Shown: one piece after another, positions 43,869-52,217 of the stretch
How the letters are laid out: every line of letters begins with the position of its first letter
Position numbering within the stretch: the first letter of the stretch is position 1
Assembly: GCA_040768745.1 (NCBI GenBank)
Contig: JAXGMI010000002.1
Span: forward strand, 480,001-544,000
Reading direction: 5' to 3'
Origin: Desulfomicrobium sp.
Lineage (GTDB): Bacteria; Desulfobacterota; Desulfovibrionia; Desulfovibrionales; Desulfomicrobiaceae
Length of the DNA: 64,000 nt
The notes under the pieces: generated by a model
The model's input: the letters and a program-made list of their open reading frames with translations, nothing else
The model's database searches: none
Told to the model about the DNA's origin: nothing
Translations under genes and position numbers: made by a program

Positions 43869-44507
43869 TCAGCCGCGCTGTTCCAGGGCAAGCTTGGCCA
43901 GGGCATTGACCACCGAGGCGGCCAGACTCGATCCACCCTTGCGGCCTGCCACGGTGATGTAGGGAACCGCGTCCTGGGCCATGAGGAGTTCCTTGGATTC
44001 CACCGCGTTCACAAATCCCACAGGCATGCCGATGATGAGCTGCGGCGGCCTGGCCCCCTGTCCGATCCAGTCCAGAAGCCGCACCAGGGCTGTCGGCGCA
44101 TTGCCGATGACAAAAATATCCGCCCCGCCATGGGCCATGACCTCGTCAACGGCGGCCCACGCCCTGGTCACGCCCTCGGCCTTGGCCCGCTTGGCCACCC
44201 GGGCCTCGTTCATCAGACACCGGGCTGTGCACCCCAAAGGATCGAGCCGACGCCGGGGAATGCCGACCAGCGCCATGTGCGTGTCAGTGACGATGTCCGC
44301 CCCGGCCAGGAGCGCTGTCTTTCCTGCAAGAACGGCCTGGGGGTGAAAGCGGATATGGGTCAGAAGATCGAAATCCGCTGTGGCATGGATCATGCGTCGG
44401 GCAACAACCCACTCCTCAGCGGCGAAGGGCCTTGGTTCTGGCACTTCGGCATCAATGATGGCCATGGATCGGGACTCGATCTCTTCCGCCGGTACGTGTG
44501 TGTACAT
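43869..44507 (-). CDS. cbiC: Precorrin-8X methylmutase
   Basis: RMIHATAD, IGNAPTAL, PVGFVNA.ESK and GRKGGS. Confidence 0.95.
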   Translation of the reverse strand: MYTHVPAEEIESRSMAIIDAEVPEPRPFAAEEWVVARRMIHATADFDLLTHIRFHPQAVLAGKTALLAGADIVTDTHMALVGIPRRRLDPLGCTARCLMNEARVAKRAKAEGVTRAWAAVDEVMAHGGADIFVIGNAPTALVRLLDWIGQGARPPQLIIGMPVGFVNAVESKELLMAQDAVPYITVAGRKGGSSLAASVVNALAKLALEQRG

Positions 44508-44548
44508 GAAGTTTCCTTATCACCCTGATTGGTTCAGGATGTATGTCA

Positions 44549-45226
44549 TCAGGGGAAAGAACGTTCGCTTTTGCCATTTTCAGAAGCTTCATGGATGGTC
44601 AGCACAACCACGCTGTCCTGTTCAAAAAACTTCTGATCGACATGGCCGAACAGCGTGTGCTCCACATCCAGCACGACTCTGGCCCGCTTATAGGGCTTGT
44701 CGTCGTGTCCCACGCGGATCCTGCGCACCAACCGGCCGTGGCATTCCACATCGCGTCTGAGGCCATTTTCAGGCAGCGTGCCATCGAAATCGCAGACCAC
44801 GCGTCCAGGGGGCACCCCGTCGAGCATGAAGAGGTCCGGGAGAACCGGACTGTCCAGGTAGATCGACACTTTTTCCTTCGCCTCGTGGACCTCGAATTCA
44901 ATGCGCACGATCCGTCCTTCACGAAAACGCAGACAGGAGGATTCCTGCTTCCGGTATACAGGAACCCGTACTCTGGCATTAGGGACCAGCGCCCCGGAAT
45001 GGGCAACGGCCGGGTTCAGTTGCGCAAAAGCACGGCGGGCATGGACATACTCCCGCATGGAGGTGATGCAGTTGTAACGGAGCAGAATGGCGCGGATGCT
45101 ATCCCCCGCAACAATGCGATGCTCCCTTGCGGCGGGCGTAGCCGGAGCCGCATGGAGGAGATCGCCCGAAAATTGCGGCAGTATGGCCCCGAGGACCAGG
45201 CAGACGAAGAACATCCTACACTTCAT
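44549..45226 (-). CDS. Exported protein with LysM-like and AMIN-like domains
   Basis: Signal peptide; HRIVAGDSI..LNP..VRVP; PGRVVCDF..VRRIRVG..RVVLDV. Confidence 0.6.
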   Translation of the reverse strand: MKCRMFFVCLVLGAILPQFSGDLLHAAPATPAAREHRIVAGDSIRAILLRYNCITSMREYVHARRAFAQLNPAVAHSGALVPNARVRVPVYRKQESSCLRFREGRIVRIEFEVHEAKEKVSIYLDSPVLPDLFMLDGVPPGRVVCDFDGTLPENGLRRDVECHGRLVRRIRVGHDDKPYKRARVVLDVEHTLFGHVDQKFFEQDSVVVLTIHEASENGKSERSFP

Positions 45227-45501
45227 GACGATATCTTCCTCGAGCGTGCTGAGATTTGGCGTGAATGTATCTGTAATCAAGAAGGATGAAAAAGAAAATC
45301 AATTCCATGCATCATTTTCAACCTGCAGGGGCAGGTGACCGCGCAACATGGGCTTGACCTCGGGGACTGGGCACGCCAAAAGGTTTGAAAATATGGTCGC
45401 AGCGACGGTCCAGACCGGAAAAAAATTCAAAAGGCCTCCCCGTGGCGGGCCAAGCCCGGACAGACCGTTCTGACGGAAGAGGACTGCGGCAAGGAGACAG
45501 C

Positions 45502-46194
45502 ATGAACACCCTGACCTGGCACGGCCACTCGGCCTTCGCCATAACATCCGGAAATAAAACAATCCTCATCGACCCCTGGTTCGACGGGAACCCCTCGGCC
45601 AAGGCCGCGGCGGCGAACATCGACGCCGACCTGGTCCTGGTCACCCACGACCATGGCGACCACGTCGGCCAGGCCCTGGACATCTGCAGGCGCACCGGGG
45701 CCACCCTGGGCTGCATCGTGGAGCTGGCGGCCAGGCTCAAGTCCCAGGGTCTGCCGGGCGATCAGGTCCTGAACGGCATCGGTTTCAACATCGGTGGCAC
45801 CGTGATCCATCAGGGCATCTCGGTGACCATGACCCAGGCCCACCACTCCTGCGAAGCCGGCGTGCCCGTGGGCTTCATCGTCCGGCTGGAGGACGGCTAC
45901 ACGGTCTACCACTCCGGGGACACGGGCATTTTCTCGTCCATGGCCCTGTGGGGTAAGCTGCACAGGATCGACCTGGCCCTGCTGCCCATCGGCGGCGTCT
46001 TCACCATGGACGCGGCCCAGGCGGCCATGGCGACCATGATGCTCAGATGCAGGAAGGTCATCCCCATGCACTGGGGCACCTTCCCGGCCCTGGCCCAGAA
46101 CGTGGACGCCTTCAAAAAGGAGCTGGACAAGCTGGAGCTGGGCGACGCGTTGATAAAGGCCGAGGTCGGCGTGCCCGTCGGGCTGGTGCGCTGA
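45502..46194 (+). CDS. UPF0173 metal-dependent hydrolase (metallo-beta-lactamase fold)
   Basis: WHGHSAF, IDPW, THDHGDH, YHSGDT, PIGG and PMHWGTF. Confidence 0.92.
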
Positions 46195-46343
46195 CAGGCC
46201 GCCCCAAAACGGTGATCTGCTGCGTCAGCGAAAAAAGCCAGGACGCGCAGTGTATTTTCGCATACATAAGCGGTCTGGCTTTTTTCGCTTCCTTGCATCT
46301 CACCATTTTGGAACGGCCTGCACATTTGGTGTTTTTTAACAGC
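46195..46343. repeat. Long imperfect palindrome, MITE/REP-like element
   Basis: Nested inverted repeats CAGGCCG/CGGCCTG, CCAAAACGGTGA/TCACCATTTTGG and a perfect 15-bp AGCGAAAAAAGCCAG/CTGGCTTTTTTCGCT; ends in TTTTTTAACAGCC. Confidence 0.6.
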
Positions 46344-46416
46344 CAGCCCTAAGACTTCACGACGCCCGGCCGGAAGCCGGTCCCGTGAAGACGGGGTGCC
46401 ATGCGGCGCAACAGAC

Positions 46417-46446
46417 AAGGCCCGGTCGATCGTTCGGCCGGGCCTT
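46417..46446 (-). terminator. Hairpin downstream of trpB
   Basis: AAGGCCCGGtCGA/TCGgCCGGGCCTT stem 8 bp after the trpB stop; weak U tail. Confidence 0.5.
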
Positions 46447-46454
46447 CCTTCGTG

Positions 46455-47663
<1,209 letters not shown>

Positions 47664-47686
47664 GAGTGCCTCCTTGGGGTTTTTTG

Positions 47687-47721
47687 AAAAAAAAAACCGC
47701 GGTCAGTGTGCACTGCCGCGG
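47687..47721 (-). terminator. Attenuator terminator of the trpB leader
   Basis: Minus strand CCGCGG-CAGTG-ca-CACTG-a-CCGCGG followed by 10 T, 23 nt before the trpB ATG. Confidence 0.88.
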
Positions 47722-47749
47722 CTGGTATTCGCTTATCCTCTGGCGGATT

Positions 47750-47827
47750 TCAGGCCAACACGCATCCCACGGCATGTATTCCATGCCGCCACCAAAGAAG
47801 GGAAACGCTGCTGGCCGTGATTTTCAT
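47750..47827 (-). CDS. trpL: Tryptophan attenuation leader peptide MKITASSVSLLWWRHGIHAVGCVLA
   Basis: 25-codon ORF with tandem TGG TGG codons (47794-47789) upstream of a terminator and trpB; below the ORF-track size cutoff. Confidence 0.85.
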   Translation of the reverse strand: MKITASSVSLLWWRHGIHAVGCVLA

Positions 47828-48292
47828 GGAAATTTTACTGCCCCATGCATTCCGCGTTTGTCAAGCGGGGGGGCTTGGGATAGAGAATGGCGGCGTGAAC
47901 ACGCAGGACGGATCCCATGATCACCAAGAGCAACGACACCACCTGGCAGGACCTCATCCTCCGCATCCGGGTAGCACCCTGGTCCATGGGAACAAGACCC
48001 TCATGACCCCTTTCGAGTCGCAGAAAAGGTCCTTTCTGCCACTTCCCAGCCACATTCACGATCAGACCGCCTGCCTGGTCTCCGACCTGGTGACTACGAC
48101 CATCATGGCGCCGAGCACCACGCGGACCATCGAGACGACTGGCCCAACGCGCCAGGCCAAGTGTACTGCGCCGTCATCCATGCAGGGGTTTTCTCGCCGG
48201 AGCGCGAGGACTGCCTGGCAGATCAGCAGGCCCGGGAAGTGCACGGATATTCCAGGCATCGACACATCCGGTTCCGGACGAGAAAAGGCTGC

Positions 48293-49207
48293 ATGAGCGG
48301 CCGCGACGCATTTTCCCGCACCGTTACGGTGGAAGAGGCCGGCACCGCCTGCGACCTGCTGGCCAGGCTGACGGGTTTGCCCAAGGCACGGGTGAAGGAC
48401 TGCATGACCAAGGGTGGGGTGTGGTGGAGCCGGAACGGACGATCCACATGTCGGCTGCGGCGTGCCACATCGGTGGCACAACCCGGGGACAGTCTGGAAA
48501 TCAATTATGACCCGGCCCTCCTGGCCCTGCGCCCTGCACCTCCCACGCTCATTGCCGACATGCATCTGTATTCAATCTGGGACAAACCGGCAGGTGTCCT
48601 GGCCCAGGGCACCCGCTTCGCCGACCACTGCGGCCTGCCGCGCCTGGCCCAGTCCATTCTCGGGATGAAAACGGAGCCCCACCCTGTGCACCGCCTGGAT
48701 CGTGAGGCATGCGGCCTCATGCTCCTGGCTCATGACAACAGGTCTGCTTCAACGCTGGGGCGCCTCTTCCGCCAAGGGGCAGTGGAGAAGAAGTACGCTG
48801 TCGTTGTGGCCGGAATTCCTGACTGGTCAGAAATTGCGGTCGACCTCCCCCTGGACGGGCAGGGCTGCCTGTCCCACTTCACTGTGCTGGAAACGGATCT
48901 CGAGTCCAACAGCTCCCTGATTTCCGCCTGCATCCGAACAGGACGAAGACACCAGATCCGCCGCCATCTGGACAGGATCGGCTTTCCCGTCCTGGGAGAC
49001 CCTCGCTATGGCCAGGGCAATAGCTGCCCGAACGGTCTGCAACTCACGGCGGTCAGCCTTGGTTTCCCCTGTCCATTCACCCACACATGGCAGAGCTGGT
49101 CTTTACCGATCACCAGATTTCCGATTCCCGCCGGGCCCAAACGAAGATCCAACCAGGCTGATTCTCCCACACTTCGCCTTCTCCAGTTCCGGAAAGATCG
49201 GACTTGA
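48293..49207 (+). CDS. RluA-family pseudouridine synthase
   Basis: DKPAGVLAQG, VHRLDREACG and TGRRHQIRRHL..GFPVLGD. Confidence 0.92.
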   Translation: MSGRDAFSRTVTVEEAGTACDLLARLTGLPKARVKDCMTKGGVWWSRNGRSTCRLRRATSVAQPGDSLEINYDPALLALRPAPPTLIADMHLYSIWDKPAGVLAQGTRFADHCGLPRLAQSILGMKTEPHPVHRLDREACGLMLLAHDNRSASTLGRLFRQGAVEKKYAVVVAGIPDWSEIAVDLPLDGQGCLSHFTVLETDLESNSSLISACIRTGRRHQIRRHLDRIGFPVLGDPRYGQGNSCPNGLQLTAVSLGFPCPFTHTWQSWSLPITRFPIPAGPKRRSNQADSPTLRLLQFRKDRT

Positions 49208-49385
49208 ATCAAATCGAACGGAGTTTTTTTGTTCTTCCCATTGCGAAACAGCAAACAACGAGTTATATGAATAATAAATAAGTACCCCTTACAGGGCCTT
49301 GCCCATCTGCTTCAACCCTGTCGCATATCCCTCCTGGCGCCCTGGACGGACAATACCCACTCCCTTTTCGGGAAAAGGAGGTCGC

Positions 49386-49772
49386 ATGACGAAACAGATG
49401 TCCTTCAAAGCACAGCAACGAGAGGTGGAGGCCCGCTACAGGACCCAAATTGACTCTGCGGAATCCACAGAAGATGTGCGGAAGTTTTTTGAACGCACTG
49501 CTGTAAATTTTTTGCATCGTGCGGTCGGAGAGCAGGTCGATGTGCAGCCCGATGATGTATCCTTTGAACCGGACGCGGAACCGGGGTACGCACTGAGTGA
49601 CCGCTTGCTGAAAAACGAGGCCTTTTCAGCCTTGTGGGAGGAGTCGGATCTGCCTCAAATTCTGACTCTGTTGTCTGAGCGGGCCCTGAATCGATACAAG
49701 TATTTGGCCCGCAAGCATCCGGACAAGACGGAAATGAAGATTTTCCAGGTTTCCGGCCCCCGCCGGTATTGA
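49386..49772 (+). CDS. Hypothetical protein
   Basis: AAGGAGG ribosome-binding site, 128 aa, co-oriented with the USP gene. Confidence 0.7.
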   Translation: MTKQMSFKAQQREVEARYRTQIDSAESTEDVRKFFERTAVNFLHRAVGEQVDVQPDDVSFEPDAEPGYALSDRLLKNEAFSALWEESDLPQILTLLSERALNRYKYLARKHPDKTEMKIFQVSGPRRY

Positions 49773-49826
49773 TCCCTCAAAACCTTGTTGAAATGGACAT
49801 CAAAGACAACTTAAAAGGAGGACAAA

Positions 49827-50249
49827 ATGAAAATCTTGGCAGCGGTTGATCAATCGGAATACGCTGGCATTGTGCTCCAGAAAGCCGCAGAACTCTCCTC
49901 CAAGTATGGAGCGGAAGTGACTGCCCTGACTGTGACCAACCTTGCCTTCACGAACCTCTATATTGGGGAGACACCCACAGAGATAGTCAGTAAGGTCCGT
50001 GAGGGGATAAAGGAGAAGGTCAAGGACATCGAAGCAAAAGCCAGGGGGATTGACGGGAAAATCAAGTTCGAGGTGGAAGAAAGCGCTTCCCCTGCTGACG
50101 CCATCGTCAAATATGCGGAAAAGAATGGGATCGACCTCATTGTCATCGGCAACAAAGGTGCCGGCGCAATTGAACGCTTCCTCATCGGCAGCGTGTCCAG
50201 CCAGGTCGTGACCCATGCCCCATGCTCTGTGCTGGTCGTCAAAAAGTAG
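49827..50249 (+). CDS. Universal stress protein (UspA family)
   Basis: KILAAVD and DLIVIGNKG..IGSVSSQVVTHAPCSVLVVK. Confidence 0.95.
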   Translation: MKILAAVDQSEYAGIVLQKAAELSSKYGAEVTALTVTNLAFTNLYIGETPTEIVSKVREGIKEKVKDIEAKARGIDGKIKFEVEESASPADAIVKYAEKNGIDLIVIGNKGAGAIERFLIGSVSSQVVTHAPCSVLVVKK

Positions 50250-50269
50250 CTTTCTGTGAAATTGCTGCG

Positions 50270-50308
50270 CATCAAAAAGCCCGGTTCACACCGGGTTTTT
50301 TGATGCAT
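50270..50308. terminator. Bidirectional terminator between usp and dxs
   Basis: CATCAAAAAGCCCGGT-tcac-ACCGGGTTTTTTGATG, overlapping the dxs stop. Confidence 0.75.
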
Positions 50309-52217
50309 GACCCCCAGAGAGACTGTGTAAGGCCTGAAGGATCCCATCCCGGTTCAATCCCAGCCTGGCTCGCAATTCCTTCTGACTGCCATGCTCGACG
50401 AAAATATCCGGGACCCCGAGACGCTTGAAGCGCAGTTTGGCCAGAGCATCACGGTCGGCCAAGAGCTCCAGAACGGCAGAACCGAACCCTCCTTGCAGGA
50501 CGTTCTCTTCCACCACGAGCATGCATGGCTGCGTGGATGCCAAGGCCAGAAGCTGTTCTTCAGGTAACGGTTTAACAAAGCGGGCGTTGAATACCGCCAC
50601 ATCCCGTCCGGTTTCTGCATGAAACAGCCGGGCAGCCTCCAGGGCTGGATTAACCCGGCTGCCCAGAGCCACGATGACCCCGTCAGATCCATCCCTGAGC
50701 AGTTCCCCCTGTCCCACGGGCAGAATTTCAGGACAGTCCGCCAGGGGTGCGCCTTCGCCCAGACCCCTCGGATACCGCAGGGCCACGGGACCTTCATGGG
50801 CCATGGCCGTGGCCAGCATATTCTGCAGTTCCGGTTCGTTGCGCGGGGCCATGATCATCAGGTTCGGAATATGGCGCAGATAGGAAAGGTCGAATACGCC
50901 GTGGTGGGTGGCCCCGTCTTCGCCCACCAGGCCGCCCCTGTCCAGACACAGTGTGACGCTGAGGTTCTGCAAGCAGACGTCATGTACGACCTGGTCGTAT
51001 GAGCGCTGCATGAATGTAGAGTACACGGCCACCACAGGCTTCATTCCCTGGGAGGCAAGACCGGCTGCAAAGGTCACGGCGTGCTGTTCGCAGATACCCA
51101 CGTCGAAAAACCGATCCGGAAATCGTTCGGAAAAACAGGTCAGCCCCGTGCCTTCGGGCATGGCCGCTGTGATGGCCACGATCCGCTCATCCTTTTCAGC
51201 CAACGTGCAGAGGGTGCTCCCGAATACCTCGGTGAACGTGGGAAGCGAGCAGGCCGCGAACTTTCTGGCAATGCCTGTCTCGGGCTCAAAGCAGCCCACG
51301 CCGTGGAAGTAGGTCGGGTTGGTCTCGGCCGGCTCATATCCCTTCCCCTTCTTGGTCAGAACATGAATGAGAATGGGGCCTTCCAGCTCCCTGGCCTGTT
51401 CGAACACATTGGTCAGCAAGCGCAGATCGTGACCTTTGATGGGGCCGATATAGGTGAAGCGAAAGGCCTCGAAGAGCATGCCCGGCGTGAAAAAACTTTT
51501 GAGTGAATCCTCGCTGCGGCGCGCGTAGTCGGCAATGTCGTCCCCGATCTTGGGGATCTGGCGCATGATGGCCTCAGCCTCCTTCTTGAATCGCTGCACC
51601 CAGCGCTTGGACAGCTTGCGGCTGAGAAATGAGGAAAGAGCCCCGACATTGCGGGATATGGACATCTCATTGTCGTTCAGGACCACGATCAGATCCTTGC
51701 CCAGACCACCGGCCTGATTAAGACCTTCGTAGGCCAGACCGGCAGTCATGGAACCGTCGCCGATGACGGCGACGACGTTGTGGCTCTGGTTGGCGAGGTC
51801 CCTGGCCGCAGCCATGCCCAGGGCAGCGGAAATGGACGTGGAGGAATGACCTACCCCGAAATGGTCGAAAGGGCTTTCCGAAGGGCGCGGAAATCCGCTG
51901 ATGCCGTCCAGCTTCCGCAAGGTGTGAAACCGTTCCAGCCTGCCGGTCAGAAGTTTGTACGCATAGGCCTGGTGCCCCACGTCCCAGACAATGCGATCCC
52001 GGGCCGGATTGAAGACGCGGAGCAAAGCCATGGTCAGTTCAACCACCCCCAGAGAGGGCGCAAGATGTCCACCTGTGGTGGACACGGTCTGAATGATCAT
52101 GCGGCGGATTTCTTCACCCAACCTTGTCAGTTCCTTTTCATTCATGGTCTGCACATCGGAGGGATGCTCAATGGCAGCCAGCATGGGAAAAAGTTCCTGC
52201 AGGGTTTGAAGAGTCAT
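50286..52217 (-). CDS. dxs: 1-deoxy-D-xylulose-5-phosphate synthase
   Basis: [31 protein letters not shown] and [13 protein letters not shown]. Confidence 0.98.

Follow-up and report, generated by a model that had tools for sequence, protein, structure and literature searches.

The window, a stretch of 64,000 nucleotides of a Desulfomicrobium genome considered here at its full length, carries on its minus strand a stand-alone trpB gene, preceded by a short open reading frame (ORF) with two consecutive Trp codons and by RNA segments that can pair in alternative ways. Listed in the direction of transcription, the parts are as follows.

47859..47864, minus strand: sigma70-type −35 hexamer TTGACA, invariant in 24/24 rows of alignment A1, whose rows were cut at the TTGACA motif itself
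47835..47840, minus strand: candidate −10 hexamer CAGTAA, non-canonical, without the last T, at an 18-nt spacer
47750..47827, minus strand: trpL-like leader ORF of 25 aa, MKITASSVSLLWWRHGIHAVGCVLA, without a Shine-Dalgarno (SD) sequence, predicted to be translated leaderless or nearly so; stop codon at 47752-47750
47789..47794, minus strand: putative regulatory Trp codons TGG TGG, codons 12-13, present in 23/23 genus loci
47769..47789, minus strand: protector hairpin 1:2, GCGGCAUG/CAUGCCGU, with region 1 at 47789-47782 and region 2 at 47776-47769
47711..47778, minus strand: antiterminator 2:3, 47778-47767 pairing with 47721-47711
47687..47722, minus strand: intrinsic terminator 3:4, stem 47722-47696 with one bulged A, 10-U tract 47696-47687
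47669..47675, minus strand: trpB SD sequence AAGGAGG, assigned by anti-SD pairing
46455..47663, minus strand: stand-alone trpB, TrpB1 type, 402 aa, matching TIGR00263

Much of this had been outlined in an earlier note on the same DNA. The TTGACA at 47864-47859 and the ATG at 47827 that it named are both present on the minus strand, as are its hairpin directly after the Trp codons (47789-47769) and its GC-rich terminator with a 10-U tail; the lack of an evident SD at the leader ATG is borne out by an anti-SD pairing of −2.6 kcal/mol, against −11.2 for trpB. The segment GCCGTGG exists as well, at 47773-47767 and not at 47774-47768, and the 7-bp pairing proposed for it (GCCGUGG, 47773-47767, with CCGCGGC, 47721-47715) forms the core of a longer antiterminator, in which UAC-A-UGCCGUGG (47778-47767) and CCGCGGCAGUG (47721-47711) make an 11-bp outer helix with a bulged A, joined by inner helices.

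Hairpin 1:2 (−14.0 kcal/mol, z −4.98) and terminator 3:4 (−18.2 kcal/mol, z −4.57) are each matched in stability by 0/200 shuffles, and the antiterminator (−29.1 kcal/mol, z −2.43) by 4/200. The minimum free energy fold of the window leader contains a long 5′ stem that extends hairpin 1:2. The succession of Trp codons, arm 2 and arm 3 is found at a single place in the window and in 0/100 shuffles, a weak control as the pattern was derived from the site. Since 5 of the 346 short ORFs with WW in the genome are followed by a hairpin and U6, the pattern in a single genome is no more than suggestive, and conservation decides.

The trpB product scores 600 bits against TIGR00263 (cut-off 392) and 173 against the TrpB2 model TIGR01415 (cut-off 519), and it aligns full-length to solved TrpB1 chains. 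No trpA lies near the gene, and the next gene is convergent. It is one of two trpB copies in the genome; the other, 54% identical, sits in a pheA-aroA-tyrA-trpEGDCFBA cluster on contig C1, for which all gene names except tyrA, trpE, trpA and trpB come from reading the translations by eye. Among named records, the nearest by TrpB is a Desulfomicrobium (93% identity), outer relatives are Maridesulfovibrio, Halodesulfovibrio and Desulfovibrio, and the best match in a plasmid search reached 61% identity.

Two further hairpins flank the locus. Directly past the trpB stop, a GC-rich hairpin with a weak U tail (46417-46446, minus strand) is a probable terminator between the convergent genes. Between a universal stress protein gene and a convergent 643-aa ORF, a perfect inverted repeat (50252-50320) is probably a bidirectional terminator; an Rfam E-value scan of 44000-52000 found no leader family, and its sole match, an unrelated miRNA model lying over this hairpin far below threshold, was dismissed as spurious.

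Conservation and covariation of the trpB leader

Of 24 other genomes searched in the genus, 22 hold a stand-alone trpB locus in full and the remaining two are 63% and 69% complete; the leader is intact in all 23 genus loci with upstream DNA (these 22 and the window). Codons 2-11 vary freely and the stop codon switches among TGA, TAA and TAG, while TGG TGG is invariant and the start and stop positions are kept. The leader is also found at 14 of 16 orthologous loci in other Desulfovibrionaceae records, where leaders outside the genus usually encode 17-19 aa with WWW and stop in the loop of hairpin 1:2, an E. coli-like layout. The conservation of TGG TGG upstream of orthologous trpB, which the earlier note had put forward as a check, thus extends from 23/23 genus loci to all 55 distinct leaders (57 loci less 2 duplicates), with WW in 22 and WWW in 33, although related leaders are not independent samples. 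The WWR core likened to that of E. coli is real, and the likeness is probably incidental: WWW occurs in 33/55 leaders, and in alignment A2 the genus Arg codon CGG sits on the third TGG of WWW leaders, so that the 25-aa WWR form of the genus is probably derived.

A covariance model, R1, was built from 25 of 38 leaders. It has a single match in each of 39 of 151 Desulfovibrionales genomes, spread over 4 of 7 families, and some of these matches are the model's own training sequences; in the genome that the window comes from it finds this site only. Inspection of 19 of the 20 non-genus matches (all but L025) showed WW or WWW leaders in every case, 18 upstream of trpB and 1 upstream of a gene for a DctP-family (TRAP transporter) binding protein (L146:1036-1149, genome G062), which is a candidate Trp or indole importer. 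Among 150 other genomes of the phylum, R1 gave 4 weak matches: L175, L176 and L177, from other families, have WWW leaders and terminators before DAHP synthase, TrpB2 and TrpE, with an SD-like stretch in the L175 leader, and L178, which has no Trp leader, was set aside as a chance terminator match.

Orthologous trpB genes lacking the leader were found at L027, L028, L039, L049 and L063. At L026:2879-2990 (genome G037), a decayed leader retains promoter and terminator remnants; its in-frame Trp codons are gone and about 150 nt are inserted before trpB. In three Synergistaceae loci (L068, L075 and L082, at about 2243-2380), trpB is preceded by a different leader of 18 aa, which ends in WWCV and is accompanied by a strong terminator and an SD-like stretch.

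The start of the leader is similarly constrained. TTGAC[AT] lies 29-36 nt upstream of the leader ATG in 55/55 distinct leaders, in a search limited to 27-36 nt, a range that no candidate failed. Within the genus, a hexamer starting with CA follows at a spacer of 17 or 18 in 23/23 loci, and this presumed −10 lacks the conserved last T in 20/23; outside it, a NANNNT hexamer stands at a spacer of 16-19 in 21/32 leaders, several of them exactly 6-7 nt before the ATG. The genus promoter may be weak or activator-dependent, and a −10 box without its last T has a possible link to CarD-type factors. TAAAAT (47837-47832) was rejected as the −10, having a spacer of 21 nt and no conservation. A consensus scan predicted no promoter at the leader; the same scan also missed the bulged terminator.

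Pairing with what we take to be the anti-SD sequence reaches −6 kcal/mol or below in 1/55 distinct leaders, the other 54 being without an SD at the leader ATG, and in 55/55 loci for the downstream genes. Because an SD is lacking, the ATG lies 29-36 nt after TTGAC[AT] and several relatives have a clean −10, the leader ORF is probably translated as a leaderless message, as in Sinorhizobium trpL; its geometry fits a transcription start at the A of the ATG, and a 5′ UTR of a few bases may also be present. Such starts are not general in the genome, since ATG shows no genome-wide excess 29-33 nt after TTGACA (79 of 907 sites, a flat profile). Metatranscriptome contigs (4 runs, one study) cover trpB up to 47673-47676 in 2 runs and 47677-47907 in none; being assembled, they show neither ends nor levels, possibly contain DNA and count neither way.

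Compensatory changes, likewise proposed earlier as a check, occur in all three helices. Across 25 sequences, hairpin 1:2 shows changes on both sides in 4 of 6 core pairs with 96.7% of cells paired, and terminator 3:4 in 3 of 11 pairs with 99.3% paired; together they have 98.3% of cells paired, 7 of 17 pairs changed on both sides, and 42 both-side-changed cells against 12.4 +/- 3.9 in shuffles that ignore kinship. The antiterminator is paired in 99.4% of 175 cells and changes on both sides in 2 of 7 pairs, from C-G to U-A in 4 sequences and from G-C to U-A in 1; these 5 cells compare with 0.7 in the same kind of shuffle, and the covariation score was reached by 0/500 shuffles. Slid controls have fewer cells paired than the real helices. 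The genus-only alignment holds no both-side change in 2:3 (0/8 pairs), and support for that helix comes from the wider set. Furthermore, where arm 3 has changed, arm 2 and arm 4 have both changed to match, as in the GUCGCGG:CCGCGAC pairing of Maridesulfovibrio loci; this is the mark of selection acting on two alternative structures.

At L037-L061 and L129-L150, the stretch between the U tract and the trpB SD holds a segment whose sequence complements the terminator hairpin and varies in step with arm 3; such complementarity was significant at p 0.05 or less (200 shuffles each) in 27/32 non-genus leaders.

The leader as a probable ribosome-mediated switch

The earlier note had also proposed folding the alternative structures. 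Folds were computed on transcripts cut before arm 4, under an assumed ribosome mask of the A-site codon plus 9 nt, and they switch between antiterminator and terminator as classical attenuation requires. Masked at the first and at the last Trp codon, the antiterminator has a probability of 1.00 in 38/38 leaders; masked at the stop codon, it has 0.12 or less in 38/38; the untranslated full leader gives the terminator a probability of 1.00, again in 38/38. At full-length equilibrium with a ribosome on the Trp codons the terminator mostly wins, the antiterminator reaching 0.18-0.40 in the window and staying close to 0 in most homologues. For the model to hold, the switch must be kinetic, trapping 2:3 co-transcriptionally. 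Kinetic switching of this type is accepted for classical attenuators. Without a ribosome, 2:3 exceeds 0.1 in 8/38 leaders (0.96 at L043, 0.52 at L015). In the window, ribosome positions at codons 10-16 all favour the antiterminator, not only those at the Trp codons, and Leu, Arg or His limitation could therefore also act.

Conservation, covariation and folding under the mask thus support the logic of classical attenuation read earlier from this DNA, and from them we infer its function. We read the region, with a probability of about 0.92, as a classical ribosome-mediated transcription attenuator that would allow read-through into trpB only when charged tRNA-Trp is scarce. Transcription would begin at, or a few bases from, the ATG at 47827, and the ORF would be translated as a leaderless mRNA. 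When Trp is low, a ribosome stalled at codons 12-13 would cover region 1, and 2:3 would pair as region 3 leaves the polymerase, before region 4 exists; no terminator would form, and trpB would be transcribed. With ample Trp, the ribosome would run through region 2 to the stop at 47752-47750, leaving region 3 to pair with region 4, and transcription would end in the U tract near 47690 to give a leader RNA of about 135-140 nt. If no translation takes place, 1:2 would form and termination would be the default.

The complementary segment past the U tract hints at an additional post-transcriptional layer in the leader family, and with it at a leader acting mainly on trpB translation or mRNA stability, its hairpin serving as an inefficient terminator. 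We consider this very unlikely for the window: the segment reaches p 0.05 or less in only 2/23 loci of its genus, and the window itself gives p 0.995. Moreover, the 3:4 hairpin does not include the trpB SD, and it is followed by a conserved U tract of 10 nt.

The extension of the genus ORF to 25-26 aa, with its last 8-9 codons well conserved, might instead point to a nascent peptide that senses free Trp or indole and arrests the ribosome in the manner of TnaC, with HAVGCVLA in the C-terminal extension as the arrest motif. This is less probable still. Most leaders of other genera stop 2-3 codons past WWW, in the loop of 1:2. A TnaC-type system would have conserved arrest residues near the stop and Rho-dependent termination; here C-terminal residues are not conserved outside the genus, and an intrinsic terminator is present. 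The conserved stretch of codons shares sequence with region 2 and with the inner antiterminator helix, and within the genus it tolerates non-synonymous changes (G→E, V→A, C→F, L→P). Going by the established behaviour of tnaC, free Trp that arrested the ribosome would switch a Trp-making enzyme in the wrong direction.

That the ORF is untranslated, its RNA a protein- or ligand-binding switch with structural TGG repeats, is hardly credible: the leader ATG has no SD, leader translation is a prediction and the TGGTGG bases can extend helix 1:2, but an in-frame ATG stands at a fixed distance from the promoter in 55/55 leaders with the intervening sequence varying without stops, TRAP and T-box were not found in the genome, and the decayed leader at L026 lost its Trp frame together with other parts.

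Among known ribosome-mediated attenuators, the trpL leaders of E. coli and S. meliloti come close to the window leader. With E. coli trpL it shares a short ORF with consecutive Trp codons, the 1:2, 2:3 and 3:4 alternatives, an intrinsic terminator and a biosynthetic target, as far as the accessible parts of PMC6614838 and PMC13434334 describe that leader. It differs from E. coli trpL in having no SD and no TrpR layer, and in its target, a lone second trpB instead of trpE; the genus ORF also runs through region 2, stopping 24 nt after the start of arm 2. The Rfam family Trp_leader (RF00513, gathering score 41 bits) has no match at the window locus with E up to 1, and none at the gathering score in 6 related loci; the window leader would work like trpL and is outside RF00513. 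Similarly, S. meliloti trpL (rnTrpL) is described in the accessible part of PMC6614838 as a leaderless ORF whose ATG is the transcription start, releasing an RNA of 110 nt, to which the predicted window leader RNA would be similar in size; there, on the other hand, it controls trpE(G), and start site and termination, which are predicted for the window leader, were shown.

The remark in the earlier note that this mechanism is not known to have been characterised in the lineage needs qualification. A putative attenuator before the D. vulgaris aroA′-aroB′-pheA-aroF-tyrA-trp supraoperon is on record from the Merino database (PMC1173090, Table 7). It comes from the same order as the window and has an aromatic amino-acid target, but it lies at a different locus from the lone trpB; the portions of PMC1173090 available, text and Table 7, record an attenuator neither upstream of a lone trpB nor in the interval from tyrA to trpE. 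Desulfomicrobium baculatum is among the genomes listed in PMC4833913, whose accessible text and supplements contained no per-gene prediction. In a full-text literature search, whose coverage excluded most subscription journals, no paper dealt with a Desulfovibrionales trpB leader or a TyrA-tail attenuator. Lopatovskaya et al. (2010) reportedly predicted attenuators in delta-proteobacteria with trpB among the targets; that study, or supplements beyond those we saw, may already list the trpB leader.

Candidate attenuators at the aro-trp supraoperon

Contig C1 of the same genome carries two further candidate attenuators. On its minus strand, with an ATG at 1577094 (L112) and TTGACA 34 nt upstream, a 28-aa leader, MANVTSTHSLYFFWYFYFNRACGLEVQL, and a terminator head the aro-trp supraoperon. 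This Phe/Tyr/Trp-rich leader recurs in 21 of 22 loci of relatives, with a terminator in 21/22 and TTGACA 30-34 nt before the ATG in 20/21, and it probably senses Phe, Tyr and Trp together. The D. vulgaris attenuator occupies the same position, going by the available part of PMC1173090. Several aro-trp operon genes on C1 (1565000-1577000; tyrA, trpE, aroA and others) appear to be split by frameshifts, through sequencing error or decay.

The second candidate lies between tyrA and trpE (C1 minus strand, about 1571790-1571940, L112; also at L151-L174 and L179-L238), where WWW at the end of TyrA is followed by a purine-rich arm and a U-tailed terminator. Upstream of trpE, TGGTGGTGG and then a strong terminator occur in 25/25 loci from 7 families. 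The WWW is the C-terminus of a long upstream ORF in 22 of these 25 (the frame read at L160 covered 104 residues only), and the ORF at L151 is TyrA by Pfam and NCBIfam. The exceptions are the genome of the window, whose tyrA is one base shorter than that of L151, L161, where the frame read differed from the WWW frame, and L170. The 5′ arm of the terminator is the pairing partner of the purine-rich arm, and the two arms covary between genera. At L170:6822-6938 (genome G036) tyrA lies elsewhere, and trpE is preceded by a free-standing short WWW leader whose tail and terminator resemble the tyrA-end element; its origin may be the 3′ end of tyrA, following a split of the operon.

A second set consisted of 60 TyrA loci of one family, which are kin and not independent and share one genome with the first set. 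Where trpE comes next (43 loci), a terminator is visible in 18/30 with WWW, leaving 12/30 without one, compared with 1/13 without WWW (Fisher p 0.002). Where it does not, WWW is kept in 7/17 (p 0.075), so the expected loss is only partial and the Trp run is partly a protein feature. In two genus genomes that lost the trp operon, TyrA has WW, and downstream of tyrA no terminator with a U tail could be seen. The tyrA-end element has no 1:2 protector and its arm 3 is mostly sequestered when no ribosome is present; termination would therefore need a ribosome covering the purine arm near the stop. A mask at the tyrA stop lowers arm 3 sequestration in 24/25 loci, only to 0.10-0.64. R1 scores on tyrA-end elements are weak (24.7 bits at L170, 15.2 bits at L112), and homology with the trpB leader is not claimed.

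The closest precedent for the TyrA tail, judging from the available part of PMC7755916, is Chlamydia trachomatis YtgCR, a functional protein whose internal run of three Trp residues links transcription to the supply of Trp. Stalling there promotes termination within ytgCR and affects trpBA indirectly, through a repressor, whereas the stall predicted in tyrA would prevent termination and, by means of an antiterminator, would directly affect the trpE operon that follows.

Searches of the genome, which is 99.99% complete, found no TrpR, no TRAP (mtrB, PF02081) and no T-box (RF00230), the T-box search having matched 5 of 14 known genomes as a control. With odds that we place slightly better than even, Desulfovibrionales would use three ribosome attenuators and no Trp repressor in aromatic amino-acid synthesis. 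One of the three would have no leader peptide: a ribosome stalled at the WWW tail of TyrA (prephenate dehydrogenase), a Trp-rich protein end that already existed and was co-opted as the sensor, would free a purine-rich antiterminator and so block the terminator before trpE. Where the trp genes parted from the aro operon, a free-standing trpL would have been born of such a tail, as at L170. The trpB leader, gating an enzyme of indole salvage, would be the third switch.

Probable indole salvage and the proposed place of the leader in tryptophan control

The lone TrpB itself probably serves in indole salvage, making Trp from indole and serine in a way that does not depend on the trp operon. Two genomes, G017 (one contig, 99% complete) and G012, keep the leader and its trpB, and no trpA, trpE or operon trpB was seen in them, so that there the lone TrpB could make Trp only from outside indole. 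In a quick tree without bootstrap, the leader-bearing TrpBs fall together in a single clade (SH-aLRT 99) that excludes the operon copies; no donor is inferred because the clade also holds leaderless and non-Desulfovibrionales proteins.

Amino-acid leaders in Rfam are thought to be mainly gamma-proteobacterial, according to the accessible text of PMC3766115. The mechanism of the trpB leader is itself textbook; as an uncatalogued family of sulfate reducers, absent from Rfam, it fills a gap in the attenuation map. Its presence marks the lone TrpB1 as being under Trp control, does the same in one case for a DctP-family protein, and is a pointer to the scavenging of indole. If true, the TyrA tail would show attenuators arising from coding sequence, and would explain how the trp half of a single aro-phe-tyr-trp supraoperon is tuned separately.
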